From Chiloscyllium plagiosum (Eukaryota), in NCBI RefSeq assembly GCF_004010195.1, contig NC_057758.1, forward strand, positions 3,990,809 through 4,050,194: 59,386 nt of DNA, in the 5' to 3' direction. Position 1 is the stretch's first letter. The number at the start of each line of letters is the position of its first letter. Positions 790-42,394 of this stretch are shown here, piece by piece. Position numbers and translations under genes: made by a program. The notes beneath the pieces were generated by a model. The model did no database searches. It saw only the letters and a program-made list of their open reading frames with translations, and was not told where the DNA came from.

Positions 790-1138
790 ATCTCTCAGTG
801 ATTATCACTGCTGTCTCACAGCACCAGGATTCCAGGTTCGATTCCAGCCTTGGGCGACTATCTGTGTGGAGTTTGCACATGCTCCCATATCTGCATGGGT
901 TTCCAGAGGGTGCTCCGGTTTGCTCCCACAGTCCAAAGATGTGCAGGCCAGTTCAATTGGCCATGCTAAATTGTCCATAGTGTTAGATGCATCAGTCAGA
1001 GGGAAATGGGTCTAGGTGGGTGACTCTTGGTGGGGGTGGGGTGGGGGGGGGTGTCAGTGTGGACATGTTGGGACGAAGGACTTGTTTCCACGCTGTAGAG
1101 AATCTAATATAATCTATTATAATCTAATAGAATCTAAT
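790..1138 (+). mobile_element. tRNA-derived V-SINE (HE1-like), 5'-eroded
   Basis: B-box GGTTCGATTCC, V-domain-like TGTGTGGAGTTTGCACATGCTCCC...GCTCCGGTTTGCTCCCACAGTCCAAAGATGTGCAGG, and a tail of AATCT-like repeats. Confidence 0.85.
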
Positions 1139-1824
1139 GTTGCAATGTGCTCATGCATGGCACGTCGTGTTGGTGAATACCCACAGTCCGAAAAACAGCC
1201 AGAGCCTCTTCATTTAGAAACAGTCAGCCATTCCCAACGGCTTCATGTCTTCACTTGCAAGGAAAAAATGGCCTTTCAGATTGACATCATATCCTTAATA
1301 CTTGAAACACCCCCCTGCTCATCACTTGCCACTGAGAGAAATGGGACAACTGAGAACATGACAGAGCAGTCCATCAGATTTTGCAAAACTTCCGAAGTCT
1401 GACTGGTAAGAGTGAATCTTTCAGTTCACACTGTATCACGAATGCTGCTATCTCTCTCCCTTTCACTCACATGCTGCCTCACATTCGTCCTGAAACTAAA
1501 ATGACATGGGATATGTCATGTTATATTCGATCTTCCAAACTTTTACCCGCTGTCTTCACCTCCAAGTATTCATTTGGACACTCTGCATCTTCTCTGAATG
1601 ATATAATTGTCTGTTTACCTTAACGTCATCGCCTAATATAGTTGCAGTGCATTTTTGCTAAATCATTGATACCGATTCCAAACAGCTGAACACCCAATAC
1701 TGCTTACTGTGTGACTTGACATGATATATTCTGTCAAATTGATCAAGGATGATTTATTTCGAGTTTCTGATTGCTGTTTGGTACCAATTCCTACCGCATT
1801 CGCATGTCACACAGTCAAGTTTCT

Positions 1825-2600
1825 TATCGACATTCATGATTTGAATGAGGATGTACAAGGCATGATTCGTAAGTTGCTGATGAAACTAAAGTAGATGATA
1901 CCATCGAAAGTTCGGAAGGTTATCAGAAATTATAGCAAGATCTTGATCAACTGGGCAAATCGGCCGAGTAATGCAAAATGGAATTTCGTGTAGATAAGTG
2001 AGAGGCATTGTGTTTTGGCACCTCAAATAAAGGTAGGAATTTTATGGTCAATGTTCGGACCTGAAGGAGTGTACCAGAATAGTGGGACCATGGAGTTTAG
2101 GTTCACAGTTCTCTTAAAGTGGAGTCACAGATCGGTAGAGCAGTGAGGACGGCCTTTGGCAGACTGACCTTCATCGATCAGGGCACTGAGTACAGAAATT
2201 GCACAATTATGTTAGAGCTAAAAAAAGACGTTAATGAGGACGAACTCGGAGTATAAGTGTTCAAGTTGGGTCACCATGCTGTCGAAAGGATGTCATTAAA
2301 CTGGAAAGAGTACAGAAGAAATTTGCAAAAATGTTGCCAGGACTCAACACTCTCATTTGTAGAGAGAGTTTGGATAAACTCGGACATTTTTCCATATTTT
2401 GTTGGAGACTGTGTGAGGTCCTCATAGAAGTGTATCAGGTCATGAGGGGCCTGGATAGACTGAATGCACTCATCATTTTTCACAGCATTGGGAACCGAGG
2501 GTGAGCGGGCATAAGTTTAAGGTTAGAGTGGAAAGAGTAAAATGGAAACTGAGGCGCAATTGTTTTGCAACGAGTGTGCTACGCATATGGAATGAACACA
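1825..2600 (+). mobile_element. Degenerate CR1 LINE ORF2 fragment (RT to C-terminal region)
   Basis: Decayed DLxEDVQGMIxK(F)ADxTKV, L.KVQKKFAKMLPGL and RVSGHKFKV segments with many stops and frameshifts. Confidence 0.85.
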
Positions 2601-3360
2601 AATCCACGAGGTAAAATTTTATTTCACATACCTTTCTAGATTGCTCTCTGCTCTCTCGCATTCAGGTCCGCCCCGAGTCAAGTGGACCCCTCTGACACCT
2701 GTCTTTCAATTAGTCTTATTTGTGAACTTGAACTTGATATTGAGTCCAGAGTGTTGCAAATTCTCTCAGCAGAATATTAGGTGTTTCTTTTCCAAATGAT
2801 GGTGAGCTTCGCTGAAGCACTGGACTAAGCCTGAGAAAGATGATGGACAGCGAATAGGTTCGTGTGTGCAAGTGTAAGACAGCTGAAAGCTCTGGTTCAC
2901 TTTTGCGGGTAGAACTTAGAGGCTCTATGAAGTAGCCATGCAGTCTGGTGCCCTGACCTGTGAATTGATCATCGGAGGAAAATGACAGTTTTTTTTTCCA
3001 GAACCAAGGGGTTAAAAGTAAACGATAATTGGGGAGAAATCCCAAAGAGAGAGAAGAACAGTTAGACGGAAAAAGGAGTGGAACAATCTATGGAGCGTTC
3101 TTCAACTGATGGTATTAGTCACTGGCCAAAAGTCAGTGAATTGACCAAAAGGCATGATTCTCAAGAAAGACATCACGTTGCAGGGAGAAGGACACATTGT
3201 TTCGAAGTACATTCAGGCAGTTAAAGGAGTGAACGTTTTTGTTTGTGTTTACGTTTCTTCTGGACAGAATGGCCACCACAACTTAGACTGAAAGACAGGA
3301 ACTTCCAACCTCCGTTTGTCTGGAAGGAAACGGTTGTACCGTTCAGAACCGTTAAGGACA

Positions 3361-3720
3361 ATTTTCACTTTTCCTGTCAGGAAATGTAAAGAAATAACCT
3401 TTGTTTACTTGCAAGTGATAGAGTGTGTGACAGTGTCTTAGAAACTATATGTTCTTATGAATGTTCNNNNNNNNNNNNNNNNNNNNNNNNNNNNNNNNNN
3501 NNNNNNNNNNNNNNNNNNNNNNNNNNNNNNNNNNNNNNNNNNNNNNNNNNNNNNNNNNNNNNNNNNNNNNNNNNNNNNNNNNNNNNNNNNNNNNNNNNNN
3601 NNNNNNNNNNNNNNATTTTCACTTTTCCTGTCAGGAAATGTAAAGAAGTAACCTTTGTTTACTTACAAGTGATCGAGTGTGTGACCATGTCTGAGAAAAT
3701 ATATGTTCTTATGAATGTTC
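3361..3720. repeat. 106-bp direct repeat flanking an assembly gap (N 3467-3614)
   Basis: 3361-3466 and 3615-3720 are the same 106-bp sequence with 7 counted substitutions. Confidence 0.9.
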
Positions 3721-3926
3721 GTCTCCGTGTTTGGGAAAGGAGAAATTCTTGTATTTATGTCACATCTCTAAAGTAATTCAGACATTGTGCTGTGTTATGA
3801 CAGCTCCAATAATTTCAATAGATCTTTAAATACAGTGAGCCATTTGAAATCTGACTCTGTCCACAATAAAACTGATAACTTTACCTCCAGGATGATGCAT
3901 AATTTCTTTGTTTACCTTCTTTACAG

Positions 3927-4834
3927 TTACCAGAGTGACAATCTTCATCCTGCTTCATAAAGATTGTGGATTGTCTCCCTGTGTCAGTCGTTACCTGGGG
4001 GCCATGGCAGTGGCGGATCTACTGGTCATTATCCTCGATCTGATATTGAGACACATTCCCATTATTTATTGGGAAGAGTTTACTTTCCTGTGGTACATAC
4101 ATGTGTGTAATATCCACGCCGTCCTGCTTTATGCAGCAACTGACTGTTCTGTCTGGTTCACAGTCACTTTCACCTTTGATCGGTTTGTAGCCATTTGTTG
4201 CCAGAACCTGAAAAGTAAATACTGCAGTGAGAAAACGGCGGCTGTGGTTCTTGGAACAGTGACTGTGCTGAGCTGCTTAAAGAACATTTTCTGGTATTTC
4301 ATGCTGTTAGGGCTGTATAGTCTGGATAACATTCCCTGGTTTTGTCACACAACAAGCAGTGTTCAATCCTCTCGTGTCTGGACTGCAATCGAGTTCCTCC
4401 ATCACGTCCTAAACCCGGCTCTTCCATTTCTCCTGATTGTACTACTCAATATTTTCACCGTCAGACACATTTTAGTGACCAGCAGAGCCCGCAAGAGACT
4501 GCGTGCTCACACAAATGGGGACGGTCAGTGTGATACAGAAATGCGAAATCGACAAAGATCCATAATTTTGCTGTTTGTGATCTCGGGCAATTTCATCTTG
4601 TTATGGTCAATGCTGATGGTGTACTCTATATGGAACCGGATGTGGTATTTCGGGTATAGGTCTGTGTATGTCTATCCATTTGTGCAGGAATTAGGCTTCA
4701 TGCTGCAGCTCCTCAGTTGCTGCACAAACACAGCGATATATGCTGTGACCCAGAAAAAGTTCAGACATCAGTTGAAGAATGTTCTGAAGTATCCCTTTAT
4801 TCAAATTCATAAATCAATCCAATTCACTCATTAA
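3927..4834 (+). CDS. GPR139/GPR142-like class A orphan GPCR, coding exon 2 (end of TM1 to stop); exon 1 not found in window
   Basis: Open frame with YLGAMAVADLLVI (TM2), C...SVWFTVTFTFDRFVAIC (TM3), TM5 NPALPFLLIVLLN, TM6 FILLW, TM7 LSCCTNTAIY and helix 8 KKFR. A polypyrimidine tract plus CAG acceptor (AG at 3925-3926) gives a phase-1 exon start, matching the two-exon layout of the GPR139 family. The ORF-track TTG start is intronic. Confidence 0.9.
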
Positions 4835-5451
4835 TCAATCAATTCAGGATTTTCATATTTCAATTCAATGTTTCAGCAGTGAAGCAGCTTGTCAATATGG
4901 TAATAGACTGAGGACAGTACTGGTTTGTCCATCCTTATCCTCTGACAGGTGCTTACAGGGGTATATCTCAGCGTTTCTCTCAACTCAGGAGCCAGCCAGG
5001 CAAGGCACTGCTCTCACCTGACTGTATCCATAACTTCCAACTCGTAACTGATTAAAACGTTCATTAAAAAGTGTCAAGCAGTCGAGTTTGTCTTTGCTTT
5101 GAAGACGTTGAGCTGGAGATTCTAACCCATGTCCTTGTCATCCGAGAAGGGGATGGAACCGGATGGGACACCTGAATTCTGTTTAAGTCATTCTGTCCTT
5201 GCTTTCACCTCTGTGTTAAACACCCCGTCCTGTCCTCAGCAGAATTCAACTTTCTCTCTGTTCCCCTCCATTCATATCTTTCTCCCATTCTCACAATTTC
5301 TCTCATTTGTACTCACTGCACCTCCTATTTTGTAATTGCTGTTCACTGTATCTCCCTCCCCCATTCTCATTCACTGTCTCTTCGTCATGCTCTCCCTGTA
5401 CCTCCTCCATTCTCTCTCTTTCAAATCCTGTCCACCTCCAACTCCCTCTTT

Positions 5452-18952: not shown

Positions 18953-19908
18953 TAAAAGAAAATCTCTGGTACATAATGAATACTGATCAGAACATTATTT
19001 CAAATAGATGAAGTCATTTAAGGCACAACTGGCACCTGCAATAAGATAGTTCGTCTTGGTATTGAATGAATTATTGAGCATCAATGAATTCTAAAGGCCC
19101 GACTCCACTGTACAATTGGAGAAGAGACATCAACAGCGGTTCAGGCAAAATGCGGACAGAAGCACGAGCACCATCTGAACTAAAGGTAGGATCAACACAC
19201 ACAGCCGGCTGGTGGGGAAACGAGAAGTGAACAACATTTATCACATCGCTTCGAATATGTTATGGAGATTTTGAAGAAGACACAAGAAATTGGCAAAGTA
19301 AAGATCAGATAGACGGAACAACGATTATGAGTACACGGAAGATGGTGCATTGTGTGAAATGACGCCTGATGTAAAACGCGAACAAAAAAGCGAGAGAAGA
19401 TGAAAAATGATTTTCAGAAATACTATACCCAATGCGAGAAAAACAAATCTTTGTTAAGAACATTGAAATCTTTTCAAGACAAATTATGTAGCCACCGTCT
19501 GTATTGAGACTTGTTGAATTTTCTTGCATTCGCTGAAATGTTCAAAAGCAAGCTGTTTGTACAAGGGCGGAGGCTCAGCTGTGCCACTTTGGGTATCGCA
19601 GCACAGCAAGTTACGGCGGCATCGGTCGAATCCACCTGAGAAACTCAACCACAAAGTGCTGTCGTCGGTGATCAGTGCGGTGAAAACAGGCAATTTATAA
19701 AGTCAACTGGTGACGCGCCATTTCTTCTTATATGGATCACATTTACTGTTGCCAGTCCAGGAAACGAATGTCTTCATTAGGGTTAATGCTCAGTGGTAAT
19801 CCACATTGCAACTGGCTGATATGTATAAAACACTGTGTTAAGGAGAAAACGTGAAGTGATTCAGCACCATGCCCTTATATCTTATTAACAATGTTGCATT
19901 ATCTGTAA

Positions 19909-20127
19909 GGAGAAATTGAGGTCTGCAGATGCTGGAGATCAAAGTTGAAACTTTATTGCTGGAACAGCACAGCAGGTCAGGCAGCATCCAGGGAACAGGA
20001 GATTCGATGTTTCGGGCACAGGCCCTTCTTCTCATTCCTGAAGAAGGGCCTGTGCCCGAAACGTCGAATCTCCTGTTCCCTGGATGCTGCCTGACCTGCT
20101 GTGCTGTTCCAGCAATAAAGTTTCAAC
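19909..20127 (+). mobile_element. Short non-coding palindromic Penelope-related element with a 14-bp TSD, left arm only
   Basis: TGCATTATCTGTAA at 19895-19908 and 20128-20141. 88-bp inverted arms 19944-20031 and 20040-20127 with one mismatch and an 8-nt loop. The mirrored site near 41440-41454 has a single copy of the target. Confidence 0.9.
20034..20069 (+). ncRNA. Minimal type I hammerhead ribozyme motif
   Basis: ATTC-CTGAAGA-A-GGGC-CTGT-GCCC-GAAA-C-GTC-GAAT: helix I ATTC/GAAT, CUGANGA box, helix II GGGC/GCCC, GAAA box and GUC triplet (predicted cut after 20065). Confidence 0.75.
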
Positions 20128-20224
20128 TGCATTATCTGTAAACAGAGGAACAGCTATGTTCGCTGTCTGTGTACCAATAATTGGAATGTTGAAATTAAAA
20201 TTTCTCAGAGAATGGAATAATATA

Positions 20225-20990
20225 GTGGTACTGTTCGTCGAGCTGTGAATTTGTGTTGCAGATGTTTCGTTCCCTGTCTAGGTAGCATCCTCAGTGCTTG
20301 GGAGCCTCCTGTGAAGCGCTTCTGTGATGTTTTTTTCCGGCACTTATCGTGATTTGTATCTGCAGCTTCCGGTTGTCAGTTCCAGCTGGACTCTGCAATG
20401 GCCGGTATATTGGGTCCAGGTCGATGTGCGTATTGATTGAATCTGTGGATGAGTACCATGCTTCTAGGAATTCTCTGGCTGTTCTCTGTTTGGCTTGACC
20501 TACAATAGTAGTGTTGGCCCAGTCGAACTCATATTGCTTGTCATCTGAGTGTGTGGCTACTAAGGATAGCTGGTCATGTCGTTTCGTGGCTAGTTGGTGT
20601 TCATGGTTACGGATCGTGAGCTGTCTTCCTGTTTGTCCTATGCAGAGTTTTTTGCAGTCATTGCATTGGGTTTTGTACACTATAATGATTTTGCTCATGC
20701 TGGGTATCGTATCCTTCGTCCTGGTGAGTTGTTGTCTGAGAGTGGCTTTTTGTTTATGAGTGGTTATGAGTCCTAGTGGTTGCAGTTGTCTGGTTGTCAG
20801 TTCAGAAATGTTTTTAATGCATGGTACTGTGGCTAGTCCTTTGGGTTGTGGCATGTCCTCATTCCGTTGTCTTTCCCTTTGGCATCTGTTCATGGAATTG
20901 CGGGGGCATCCGTTTTTGGCGAATACATTGTAGATGTGTTCTTATTCCTAGTTTGGCAGTTCTGGTGTACTGCAGTGTGTTGTGGCCCTT
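20225..20990 (-). mobile_element. Penelope-like element 3' fragment (GIY-YIG endonuclease and 3' pLTR)
   Basis: ORF 20291..20893: IIVYKTQCNDCKKLCIGQTGRQLTIRNHEH...REFLEAWYS, a decayed PLE GIY-YIG domain. Confidence 0.9.
20258..20297 (-). ncRNA. Penelope-associated minimal hammerhead motif (AUC variant)
   Basis: Minus strand GCA-CTGAGGA-T-GCTACCT-AGAC-AGGGAAC-GAAAC-ATC-TGC; helix II is imperfect. Confidence 0.55.
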
Positions 20991-23289: not shown

Positions 23290-24165
23290 TGTCACAAAGC
23301 TAGGCGCTAAACACTGTGACTCGACTCAAGGAGACTCTGTCCTTGATTCATTCTTCAGAGCGGCAATAAACCGGGCCGTGTTCTGATCAGAGTGGTGCTG
23401 GAAAAGCACAGAAGGTCATGCAGCATCCAAGGAGCAGGAAAATCAAAGTTTCAGGCAAACGCTCTTCATCCAGAAGTCCTTCCTGATGAAGGGCTTTTGC
23501 CCGAACCGTCGATATACCTGCTCCTTGAATACCGTTTGACATGCTTTGCTTTTCCAGCACTATTCTAATCCAGACTCTGACGTCCGGCATCTGCAGTCCT
23601 CAGTTTCACCTTTGCTGGGCTCCGATCACTCTGGTTTGGTAAATAGATGAAAATACTATTAAGAGATCATTTGTTGATGTGTAAACAGATGAGTCTTCAC
23701 AGCAAAGTGGTCATTGTTTGGAAGTGACATGTATACTGAAAGGGGAGTGGTCAGCTCTTCAGCTGAGCTGAGCAGTTTTAGTTCAGTCTTGAACTGGGAC
23801 GTTCAAGAAGGAGCTGTGAGGAAACTCTCTCTCTTTTCTACACATCAACTCCAACTTGTAAGCACGTGTTCCATTTATACTGTTTCTTTTGAAGGGAGTT
23901 CGCTTATTGCGACTGTTGTGTATATTCGGAAGAGCATAATTAAGTCTATTTGGATAGATTGAGTTCTGTAGGGGTTCTTTATTCTCTTCTTTCTGTTCCA
24001 TTGTGCAATTTTATGATTTTCTTTCTCTGTTTTGAAATCAAGGAGTCAACCTAGCTATATTACTCATTGTAATTTTGCCTGTACCCTACCGGAACAAATT
24101 GCAAATTTATGATCTGGGGCTGCCTGCTTACGAATGTTTTGAGTGGTCTGTCCGAGTCCATGACA
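23290..24165 (+). mobile_element. 5' LTR of a Gypsy (Gmr1-like) retrotransposon
   Basis: TGTCA...TGACA inverted termini (23290, 24165), followed after 3 nt by a tRNA-Pro-like PBS; contains a nested palindromic element. Confidence 0.75.
23387..23612 (-). mobile_element. Older copy of the palindromic Penelope-related element, nested in the LTR
   Basis: GCTGGAAAAGCACAG...GCAGCATCC arm mirrored by ...GCTTTTCCAGC; central CTGATGAAGGGCTTTTGCCCGAACCGTC; the CTGCAGATG leader lies on the minus strand at the right end. Confidence 0.8.
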
Positions 24166-33694: not shown

Positions 33695-36367
33695 CAATTA
33701 GCTGACATGTATGACACGCCTTCTAAAATTCAATGACATAGTTGATTATTCCAGGTCAGTAAAAATGTGTTTGTATTTTAGTCTATGTTTTCGTAATTCC
33801 TAAATGATCTCAAAGCAGTAGCTCATACGCCATTCGCAGCACGTCTTTTCTGGACCCTATTGGCAAAACAATTTGAAGAATCTCCTTGAATGTGTGATGG
33901 CCTCCATTTCCTCATGAAGACATGATTTCTGAAGTAGTAACACACAGGAATGCATTCACTTTCTTTCTTTGTGGATGCCTTTTGATATAATTGTGTTAAC
34001 TCCTCATCTTCCTGCTGTAATTCAATCAGCATCGTAGAGCTAAAGATGTTTGCATGTTTACCGATTTACTCCTTCTCTGTTCCACTTACCTGATCACAGT
34101 GTGTTTCAGGTGACACGATGTCAGCTTCTTATCTGTGCCTTTTGATCTCTCCTGATTCAGCTTATGCATTTGAGATCTTCTGATCACACAATTACGGAAA
34201 AGTCCTTAATAAACATTCTCCATGTCTTCAGTTGCCTGCATCTCCACTGCCTTTTCAACTACAGTAGGCAGCACGCCTACCCATGAATTAGCCATATCAT
34301 TTGCAAGGACAAATTGTATTCCTGAAGCTGAGAGTTTGTCGAGTACTCAACAAATTCTCCAATTGTCTGGATTGTCTCGCCTCACTTTGCATAAATGAGA
34401 ACTTTTTGTCTCAGCATTAATTCCTGTTACCAGTACCTTCTCTGGCAATATTCTCACAGGAGTGTACACCTCCTCGTCATTCAGCATTAGAGAGGATATT
34501 GTGTCCCTTCATATCGTAACCAACTTACCTATTACTCCTGCCTGTGTGAAGTCACTTTACCCTTGCATGTATATGCATAAGCAGATCTTGCACTACCAGC
34601 TAAAGCAACCTCTGGTCATATTGTGTATTTTTGGCAGTTGTCAAACGTCCCTTGCGCTTTTTGTTACATGTCCAACAAATCTTCCAGGCTTGTATGATTT
34701 TCCTACATCTGGCTTTCTCCTAGCCCACCAACACTGTGATTCTGCCTAGCCCACTATATTAGAATAAAAACACCGGAGCTTTTTATCTTCTTTCTGCATC
34801 ACAAGCGTTGTTCGTTGCCCAGTGATAAGTTATCCTCAAGGCTTATACAGAGATCTAGCTTTCCCTTTCCTCAGAAAGATTCATCTTTGCTCCAGTTTTC
34901 GAATCCCTTATGGACTGATAGCCATCAGCCAATTCAGCTGCTAACTTGCTGTCTTGGCTTTCGGCTCTTCCACATGAGTTTGCACAACTTTGTCACTGGG
35001 CCGACCCTCCAAACTTTTAATCTGACTTTCCTTTTTGAAATGTCTGTTTTTTGTGTTCAAACACGCTCTCATTTTCTCTCTTTGGTGTTGCTATTTTTCT
35101 CTCTCGTCTGTTTTCAATCGTAATTCAAACTGTTTCTTATCTGCTGTCCTTTCCTTATCTCTTGCCTCTTAGTCAATCTGCTTCATTTGCAGATTCTCCA
35201 GATTCTGAGTGTTTCTCGAGCAAGTGTAAATGCTGAGGTACTGCTGTAATTATCTCTCTTTTTCTCACAGAAGCAGCCAATTACAATTACAGCTTCTCTG
35301 ATAATTCTTGCAACTTGGTCTTCTTCACTTTGTGCAAATCTTGCAAGGTCACCGCATACACACCCACAAAACGTTTGGCGACTGAAAGAACCATTACTAT
35401 CCCAATTTTTGTGTATGGAACCAAACCCTCATCCGACATAAAGACACTGACATCTACCACTCGCTGCGTAAAATCCTGCAATGAGCCCCCAATCGGTCAT
35501 GGAGGCGGACAGATCATTCAAAACATTCTTATGCAGGCAGCCCCAGATCATAAATTTGCAATTTGTTCCGGAAGGGTACAGGCAAAATTATCATGAGTAA
35601 TATAGCTAGGTTGACGCCTTGATTTCAAAACAGAGAAAGAAAATCATAAAATTGCACAATGGAACAGTAAGAAGAGAATAAAGAACCCCTACAGAACTCA
35701 ATCTATCCAAATAGACTTAAGTATGCTCTTCCAAATATACATAACAGTCGCAATAAGCGAACTCCCTTTAAAAGAAACAGTATAAATGGAACACGTGCTT
35801 ACAATTTGGAGTTGAAGTGCAGAAAAGAGAGAGTTTCCTCACAGATCCCTCCTGACCATCCCAGTTCAAGACTGAACTAAAACTGCTCAGCTCAGCTGAA
35901 GAGCTGACCACTCCCCTTTCAGTATTCGTGTCACTTCCAAACAATGACCACTTTTCTGTGAAGACTCATCTGTTTACACATCAACAGATGACCCCTTAAT
36001 ATTCTTCTCATCTACTTACCAAACCAGGGTGATCGGAGCCCAGCAAAGGTGTAAGTAAGGACTCCAGATGCTGGAGGTCAGAGTCTGGATTAGAGTAGTG
36101 CTGGAAAAGCACAGCATGTTAAACAGCATCTAAGGAGCAGGAATATCGACGGTTCGGTCAAATGACCTTCATCGGGAAGGACTTCTGGATGAAGGGCTTT
36201 TGCCTGAAACTTCGATTTTCCTGCTCCTCGGATGCTGCCTGGGCTTCTGTGCTTTTCCAGCACCACTCTAATGGGAACCCGGCCCGTTTATTTGCGCTCT
36301 GAAAAATGAATCAAGGACAGAGTCTCCTTGAGCCGAGGCACAGCGTTTAGCGCCGAGCTTTGTGACA
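33695..36367 (-). mobile_element. Mirrored Gmr1-like Gypsy LTR (35495-36367), PBS and gag/PR/INT fragment, including the nested palindromic element (~36045-36272)
   Basis: Reverse complement of 23290-25975; ORFs 33823..34032 and 35287..35481 match the left-arm ORFs. Confidence 0.85.
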
Positions 36368-40765: not shown

Positions 40766-41360
40766 TTCAAAAACATTTCTGAACTGACAGCCAGACTACT
40801 GCGACCACTAGGTCTCATAACAGCACATAAACAAAAAGCCACTCTCAGACAACAACTCAACAGGACGAAGGATCCGATACCCAGCATGAGCAAAACCAAT
40901 ATAGTGTACAAAACTCCATTCAAGGACTGCAAAAAACTCTGCATAGGACAAACAGGAAGACTGCTAACGATCCGCATCCATGTTCACCAACTAGCCACGA
41001 AACGACATGACCAGCTATCCTTAGTAGCCACGCACTCAGATGACAAAGAATATGAGTTCGACTGGGACAACACCACTATTATAGGTCAAGCCAAAGAGAG
41101 AACAGCCAGGGAATTCCTATGTGAATGGCACTTATCCACAGATTCAATTAATAAGCACATCGACCTGGACCCAATATACCGGCCACTGCAGCGGACAGCT
41201 GGAACTGACAACCGGAAGCTGCAGATACAAATCACTATAAATGCCGGAGGAAACATCACAGAAGCGCTTCACAGAAGGCTCCCAAGCACTGAGGATGCTA
41301 CCTAGACAGGGAACGAAACGCCTGCAACACAAATTCCCAGCTCGACGAACAGAACCACTA
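40766..41360 (+). mobile_element. Penelope-like element 3' fragment (mirror of 20225-20818); hammerhead motif at 41286-41325 with GUC changed to GCC
   Basis: ORF 40886..41305: NIVYKTPFKDCKKLCIGQTG; shares the YIG-to-CIG change with the left-arm copy. Confidence 0.9.
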
Positions 41361-42394
41361 TATTATTCCATTCTCTAAGAAATTTAATTTCAGGATTCCA
41401 TTTATTGGTACACAGACAGAGAACATAGCTGTTCCTCTGTTTACAGATATTGCAACATTGTCAATAAGGTATATGGGCATGGTGCTGAATCACTTCTCGT
41501 TTTCTCCTTAACACAGTGTTTTATATATATCAGCCTGTTGCAATGTGGATTACCACTGAGCATTACCCCTAATGAAGACATTTGTTTCCTGGACAGGCAA
41601 CAGTAAATGTGATCCATATAAGAAGAAATGGCGCGTCACCAGTTGACTTTATAAATTGCCTATTTTCACCGAACTGAGCATCGACGAAGGCACTTTGTGG
41701 TTGAGTTTCTCAGGTGGATTCAGCCGATGCCGCCGTAACTTGCTGTGCTGCGATACCCAAAGTGGCACAGCTGAGCCTCCGCCCATATACAAACAGCTTG
41801 CTTTTGAACATTGCAGGGAATGCAAGAAAAATCAACAGGTCTCAATACAGACGGAGGCTACATTATTTGTCTTGACAAGATTTCAATGTTCTTAACAAAG
41901 ATTTGTTTCTCGCATTGGGTATAGTATTTCTGAAAATCATTTTTCATCTTCTTTTGCTTTTTTGTTCTCGTTTTACAAGCAGGAGTCATTTCACGCGGTG
42001 CACCATCTTCCGTGTACTCATAAACTTTGTTCTGTCTGTCTGACTTTACTTTGCCAATTTCTTGTGTCTTCTTCAAAATCTCCATAACATATTCGAAGCG
42101 ATGTGATAAATGTTGTTCACTTCTCGTTTCCCCATCAGCCAGCTGTGTGTGTTGATACTACCTTTAGTTCAGATGGTGCTCGTGCTTCTGTCCACAGTTT
42201 GCCTGAACCGCTGTTGATGTCTCTCCAACAATTGTACAGTGGATTCGGGCCTTTAGAATTCATTGATGCTCAATAATTCATTCAATACCAAGACGAACTA
42301 TCTCATTGCAGGTGCCAGTTGTGCCTTAAGTGACTTCATCTAAATGAAATAATGTTCTGATCAATATTCATTATGTACCAGAGATTTTCTTTTA

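Follow-up and report, generated by a model that had tools for sequence, protein, structure and literature searches.

The window analysed here, a stretch of 59,386 nucleotides from Chiloscyllium plagiosum, consists of a single inverted duplication of ~59 kb (arms at ~3870-24715 and 34945-59386) around an AT-rich centre at 30-34 kb; complementarity is 88-98% in the 25 longest arm pairs. One arm of the duplication carries an insert of 219 bp between two copies of a direct repeat (TSD) that sequence comparison shows to be exactly 14 bp long (19895-19908 and 20128-20141, with a mismatch at the 15th bp); by calculation, 14 bp would match by chance at any one place with a probability of ~1.4e-9. Within the insert, 19944-20031 pairs with 20040-20127 to form an 88-bp stem closed by an 8-nt loop. 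The stem contains a single T-G pair (20008/20063), and the long arm has a C-to-T change at a CpG at position 20008. Base 20031 can be assigned to either arm, which corresponds to a 1-bp overlap. The TSD, the insert length, the stem with one G-U pair and the loop were all described by the original prediction and are all confirmed at their positions. The 35-bp segment that it called a leader is also present, but we read it as the tail known from Penelope-like elements (PLEs). The earlier observation was thus exact, while its interpretation changes.

Table 1 Features of the insert, its target site and the predicted hammerhead (PMC sources cited from the parts available)
Feature	Position	Strand	Remark
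Left TSD, 14 bp	19895..19908	+	Present once, with 1 mismatch, in the sister arm
35-nt PLE tail, +90 to +124 from hammerhead C3, on the long arm only	19909..19943	-	Tail known from PMC3846280, PMC8557442 and PMC11167929
Long arm, with tail: inverted pLTR from +2 to +89, core of the hammerhead incomplete	19944..20031	-
Head-to-head junction and 8-nt loop, copy-specific	20031..20039	n/a
Short arm: pLTR, -6 to +89	20032..20127	+	Matches at 95/95 positions the pLTR that follows RT + GIY-YIG frames at other genomic loci
Predicted minimal type I hammerhead, PLE kind, expected to cut after 20065	20034..20069	+	Predicted from sequence; features as in PMC4209133
Helix I	20034-37/20066-69	+	Sequence
Hammerhead core	20038-44	+	Sequence
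Extra A	20045	+	Sequence
Helix II	20046-57	+	Sequence
GAAA	20058-61	+	Sequence
CGTC	20062-65	+	Sequence
Right TSD, 14 bp	20128..20141	+
Empty paralogous target, sister arm of the inverted duplication	41441..41454	-	Sequence comparison

The sister arm of the duplication holds one copy of the target and lacks the insert. The flanks of the two arms agree at 385/409 and 329/357 positions (6-8% different), while a comparison of the insert with a copy on another contig shows differences at 2/219 positions; the insertion is therefore younger than the duplication. This bears out two earlier claims, namely that the insertion followed the duplication and that the element was recently mobile. When sequencing contigs were checked for an empty allele, none bridged the insertion site, and the contigs covering the flanks differed at 8-9 positions.

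Other PLE remnants lie in the window. A fragment of a second Penelope-like family (20225-20815) starts ~85 bp to the right of the insert and predates the duplication; it contains a hammerhead-like core on the minus strand (20294-20261) with a helix II unlike that of the insert, and related copies are found at 41289-41322 and 40047-40014. Older, decayed relatives of the insert's terminal repeat, 78-80% identical to the short arm, are located at 23363-23569 and 36088-36295. The relative near 23450-23560 has cores on both strands and resembles an older hairpin.

The hammerhead elements sit where the original prediction had placed them, and the traits of a minimal PLE hammerhead are present: CUGANGA, GAAA, NUH, helices I and II, an extra base 9/10.1 and a palindromic helix III. 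The motif is complete in the right (short) arm only; in the left arm (minus strand), C3-U4 are missing and helix III is altered. An Rfam scan of the whole window at E<=1 returned nothing, hammerhead included. In the family DNA that we fetched, N7 varies (A, G or T) and so does loop II, while the 4-bp stem II is constant; the core is conserved across copies by construction, since the scan demanded it. No two-sided, compensatory change was seen in helices I and II among the close subfamilies in this DNA, and a sister subfamily has helix I weakened to 2 pairs. In a computed fold of the free arm, the pairing probability is 0.04 for helix I and 0.99 for helix II.

To which family does the insert belong? 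Its short arm is identical to the pLTR of several loci, including L239 and L245. At L239, this pLTR follows a stop-free frame of 671 aa by ~150 bp, and the frame matches RVT_1 (E 4e-8) and GIY-YIG (E 3e-4, 21.5 bits against a cut-off of 22.6); the GIY-YIG domain of another copy (L061) scores 27.5 bits, above that cut-off. The earlier proposal that a Penelope RT/GIY-YIG protein serves as the machinery is therefore supported, because an RT + GIY-YIG frame precedes a pLTR identical to the short arm. The L239 frame also carries a CX4CxxC linker, and this linker, two Cys between the GIY and YIG positions and a downstream His are shared by L239, L234 and L245. According to the available part of PMC8557442, a CX2-5CxxC linker before GIY-YIG and a CCHH motif mark Neptune/Nematis and are absent from Penelope/Poseidon. 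We thus call the family Neptune-type, a label based on the linker and on Neptune being the clade named for vertebrates. Reading outward, the sequence upstream of the arm joins the 3' end of the GIY-YIG frame, and the tail, read on the minus strand, continues in longer copies into the N-terminal frame, the 5' part of the ORF. The insert thus consists of two pLTR ends placed head to head. Together, the family shows the traits of an EN+ PLE: an ORF with RT and C-terminal GIY-YIG, an inverted pLTR, a one-sided tail and a variable TSD.

A 45-mer spanning the short end and the tail has 9,544 exact matches in the 3.56-Gb genome assembly. No complete pLTR-ORF-pLTR copy was found in 20 + 20 + 30 + 3 loci, many of which contain assembly gaps. 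A search with the tail-to-ORF junction gave 150 matches, and the 20 loci examined are internally deleted tandem units; a search with an N-terminal piece led to truncated, chimeric or gapped copies (20 loci), and one with the GIY-YIG region to RT-EN frames without a 5' pLTR (30 loci, 3 of them extended). The 5' part (tail into the N-terminal frame) and the 3' part (RT-EN-pLTR) are therefore seen in separate loci. The literature searched contains nothing on this Chiloscyllium plagiosum family; repeat databases, which lay outside its scope, may list the family.

The internally deleted tandem units measure 224, 236, 320 and 371 bp and contain predicted hammerheads (L061:1480-1936, L062:1950-2520, L113, L116, L130, L131 and L132). 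The joins of the 224-, 236- and 320-bp units recur at unlinked sites. Judged by sequence, the units qualify as non-LTR retrozymes, and they could be active donors. A further derivative is a composite of ~4 kb, present at two unlinked sites (L214 and L217, oriented ~840-4920) and, in its 3' part, also at L081. It combines a Neptune-type N-terminal frame, fragments of another RT, the decayed GIY-YIG end of another family and a Neptune-type pLTR with tail. The fragments of the other RT are presumably CR1-like. Its structure suggests that the composite is captured DNA mobilised by the Neptune-type family.

We then compared the centres and ends of other copies. The 30 best genome matches to the insert share both of its outer ends and are 96-100% identical, with different centres and TSDs. 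Genome-wide, the exact junction of the insert occurs 10 times, whereas head-to-head junctions with exact flanks number at least 2,702. A 68-site sample was drawn from the first 100 of the 9,544 matches, all on contig C1, with the L061 and L062 clusters excluded and the centre not used as a criterion. A script found an inverted partner arm at 37 of these sites, and at least 4 more are visible in the junction column; the remainder are mostly single arms or longer copies entering the ORF. Each of the 37 partner arms has a short end (+85 to +101), while the tail arms all end at +125 to +131, and single-arm copies have the same outer tail end as the hairpins. These 37 hairpins have 31 junction types. 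In a second sample, comprising 60 hairpins among 100 of the 2,819 tail-side matches with two-tail loci skipped, there are 45 junction types; the two arms overlap by 1-3 nt at the junction in 31/60 and by zero in 10/60. Three of the 60 are palindromes with a zero-loop centre, joined at -4/-4 via a 2-nt overlap, and in some copies filler separates two arms that both extend to -3 to -6. A TSD is present in 59/60, ranging from 11 to 17 bp and measuring 14-15 bp in 40. Given this junction diversity, the loop is best read as the joining scar of each insertion. Longer hairpins also exist, with arms extending 76-150 bp or more into the 3' end of the ORF (L038, L048, L116, L117, L132 and L206). L038 and L048 lie at separate sites and have the same junction, and some long-hairpin junctions may thus be inherited or favoured.

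The tail is distributed unevenly between the arms. Three different patterns underlie the genome-wide counts, which are therefore approximate: 3,158 hairpins of the insert's size class, 2,819 matches showing the tail on one specified side and 43 showing it on both. If the arms were independent (p = 0.446 per arm), ~630 two-tail hairpins would be expected instead of the 43 observed. About 2,730 hairpins have exactly one tail, and ~380 have no recognised tail; the latter may be mutated, belong to a sister subfamily or be truly short-short. Some of the two-tail cases are arms continuing into a tandem unit (L113 and L130). In addition, 8 rare variants, among them an 8-nt deletion, are common to both arms of the same hairpin in a set of 59 hairpins; the permutation mean is 0.17, and 0/5,000 permutations reach 8. 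A further 20 variants are private to one arm, and the arms of a hairpin diverge by 0.4%. The shared rare variants indicate that both arms derive from one template sequence; the sharing could also stem from a single donor active in each cell, from fold-back synthesis or from subsequent conversion of one arm by the other. The literature searched, with repeat databases and subscription papers outside its scope, contains no counted one-tail rule and no twin priming in PLEs.

The 5' ends of the arms bear on the state of the template. In the 68-site sample, which is blind to the 5' end, 46/68 tail arms start between -7 and +9 from C3, 10/68 reach further upstream and 4/68 start within 4 nt of the predicted cut (+28). 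Most arms thus begin ~30 nt upstream of the predicted cut, and the template was therefore mostly uncleaved RNA. Hairpins centred near the predicted cut gave 217 matches, with a pattern that also catches the sister subfamily. Among the matches listed, 50 near-cut loci were read by eye: both arms lie at the cut in 1/50, and one arm lies at the cut, or shows microhomology mimicking it, in 5/50 (sister subfamily). A minor class made from cleaved RNA is possible on these sequences. The 60-hairpin sample has 0/120 arms at the cleavage site, a figure that carries no weight as its length window excludes such arms. At the upstream edge of the 5' cluster lies TCATTCC, which we take to fit the initiator consensus. 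Transcription likely starts there, 4-6 nt upstream of the hammerhead core; alternatively, the cluster could reflect stalling of the RT at helix I. A check for a cap-derived G gave 3 G and 2 A (n=5 only).

One raw RNA run, which may come from another species, has 358 reads on a stretch of the family, 92% of which run into unrelated sequence; poly(A) reads in this run carry family sequence in both orientations. No common read start or end, including at the predicted cut, was noticed in this run. A second run has no reads on the stretch.

Together, our results suggest that the insert is, with good probability, a stub of a Neptune-type Penelope-like retrotransposon, consisting of two head-to-head pLTRs with one 35-nt tail and likely built in one insertion rather than derived from a pre-existing hairpin. 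The family identity, the outer ends fixed at +89 and ~+124, the varied junctions, the TSD of 11-17 bp, the single tail and the shared variants are all direct observations. From them we infer the following putative course of insertion in Chiloscyllium plagiosum. The donor may be a coding element, or else an internally deleted tandem unit (224, 236, 320 or 371 bp), and its RNA likely begins at the initiator-like TCATTCC. The GIY-YIG nuclease likely cuts both DNA strands ~14-15 bp apart, and both cut ends likely serve as primers for reverse transcription at positions within the RNA, the first at +124 and the second at +89; in the simplest case, the same RNA molecule is used. Both cDNAs would then pass the uncleaved hammerhead to the 5' end of the RNA and likely be joined by 0-3-nt microhomology or a short filler, and gap filling would yield the TSD. 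Since priming would occur near the 5' end of the RNA, most events would copy the pLTR only, with long copies depending on tandem read-through RNA. The resulting stub lacks an ORF and is likely inert.

This course agrees with biochemical work on a related element. In vitro, the Poseidon protein of Anolis cuts and extends both strands, is predicted to form a dimer and uses uncleaved RNA, and its RT starts at two internal sites bounding the tail (available part of PMC11167929). No difference in start site between the strands was seen (PMC11167929), and the Poseidon work therefore does not itself predict the asymmetry. It is tempting to speculate that two-primer synthesis on a single RNA is obligate: an asymmetric RT-nuclease dimer would make cuts ~14-15 bp apart, use the far tail site for one primer and a site 35 nt upstream for the other, and join the cDNAs head to head. 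We advance this stricter version tentatively, as a conjecture that may well prove wrong.

A different route to the same stub is that priming occurs on one strand and the resulting cDNA, or else an antisense RNA, serves as its own template after folding back, with the tail left by a nuclease that resolves the fold 35 nt off-centre. Antisense self-priming (PMC3846280) and nuclease resolution as the source of the tail (PMC8557442) have already been proposed, at least in the available parts of these papers, and such a route would account for the identity of the arms, their shared variants and the single tail per hairpin. However, the zero-loop palindromic centres are better explained by annealing of two cDNA ends than by fold-back of one, and copies whose arms both extend to -3 to -6 and are separated by filler likewise speak against it. 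Single-arm copies moreover end at the identical tail position, and two RT start sites bounding the tail are known in vitro (PMC11167929, in part). We consider fold-back unlikely.

In the original prediction, the 219-bp hairpin belongs to a non-autonomous, retrozyme-like family; on this view, transcripts of the hairpin would be processed by the hammerhead and inserted again as one unit. The shared outer ends and 96-100% identity of the 30 best matches would agree with this, as would the exact junction common to ten copies and the recurrence of the family's retrozyme-like tandem units at unlinked sites. However, single-arm copies and copies joined differently have the same fixed outer ends, the arms represent the pLTR of a coding element, and the loop differs from copy to copy, the insert's junction accounting for only 10 against at least 2,702. 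The predicted ribozyme would also be buried in the hairpin, retrozymes are head-to-tail tandem repeats (PMC7229834, available part), and neither nested TSDs nor carried flanks were noticed among the 30 best matches. Replication as a unit is thus largely refuted by junction diversity, and we regard it as very improbable.

A host function of the insert, either as an RNA switch or as a source of siRNA silencing the family, is scarcely credible. An 88-bp duplex would form if the locus were transcribed, and the poly(A) reads mentioned above, from a run of perhaps another species, do carry family sequence in both orientations. In the computed fold of the full insert, however, the hairpin is 52 kcal/mol more stable than a fold with the hammerhead forced, which leaves no second accessible state, and the antisense arm would be made first whichever the direction of transcription. 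The RNA switch that had been envisaged is therefore unlikely, the more so as the minus-strand core is broken, and a transcribed insert would, according to the fold, form a long duplex burying the predicted ribozyme. The copy is also young and missing from the sister arm, and its unique left flank has no reads in one RNA run, a weak test as ~2% of that run was read. Finally, a fold-back DNA transposon or MITE would also have long inverted arms, a TSD and no ORF, but its probability is negligible: it is ruled out, in agreement with the original prediction, by the variable TSD (11-17 bp in 59/60 hairpins) and the RT link, the arm being the terminus of an RT-encoding element, and it fits neither the 35-bp overhang that leaves the left end outside the inverted repeat nor the many single-arm copies.

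The reading of the insert as a recent PLE stub is a real but mostly ordinary result, as its parts and layout are already published for PLEs. What the family adds is a set of countable constraints: one tail per hairpin, one template, a stagger of 14-15 bp and 5' ends that lie shortly before an uncut ribozyme. The one-long-one-short rule may be a record of PLE insertion. If two-primer synthesis is correct, thousands of hairpins would be a direct fossil record of the PLE insertion step, and tail, inverted pLTR and long TSD would all follow from one mechanism. For annotation, such stubs resemble MITEs or new SINE-like families and are neither. The ~3,000 near-perfect hairpins of 85-90 bp are also a putative source of double-stranded RNA.

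EN+ PLE insertions with an inverted pLTR and a one-sided tail of 30-40 bp have been described for Pen2a_Av (PMC3846280) and D. virilis Penelope (PMC2377424) and are drawn in a general scheme (PMC8557442 Fig. 2); here and below, we compare with the parts of the sources available. The head-to-head inverted pLTR, the tail at one end, the variable TSD and the hammerhead in the pLTR are the same in our insert. It differs in having only two pLTR ends with no ORF between them and in belonging to a set of thousands of copies, in which the one-tail rule can be counted genome-wide; its family's TSDs centre on 14-15 bp, against 8-10 bp in the rotifer examples. The origin of the inverted repeats and one-sided tail of PLEs is described as unresolved in PMC8557442 and PMC11167929. 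As in Poseidon of Anolis carolinensis (PAc, PMC11167929), two fixed 3' ends bound the tail just downstream of a hammerhead near the RNA 5' end, the RNA template is uncleaved and both strands are used. Unlike Penelope/Poseidon, this family carries the CX4CxxC linker of Neptune/Nematis, and pairing of one long with one short start is not reported in the available text on PAc.

The predicted hammerhead resembles those of metazoan PLEs (PMC4209133) in its 4-bp helix I, extra base 9/10.1, G10.1-C11.1 and palindromic 15.2-16.2. A further likeness is that motif pairs on opposite strands, 100-700 bp from each other, are known from Schistosoma (PMC4209133). Its helix II, however, has 4 bp, compared with 7-8 bp in the Schistosoma families. 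With metazoan non-LTR retrozymes (PMC7229834; bioRxiv 10.64898/2026.07.22.740005), the insert shares a non-coding sequence, a type I hammerhead, an origin from PLE pLTRs and long TSDs. Retrozymes, however, are head-to-tail units with a hammerhead in each, whereas the insert is head-to-head with one complete motif and contains no monomer unit. The term retrozyme-like thus does not suit the insert itself, and it is the 224-371-bp tandem derivatives elsewhere in the same family that better match the description of retrozymes.
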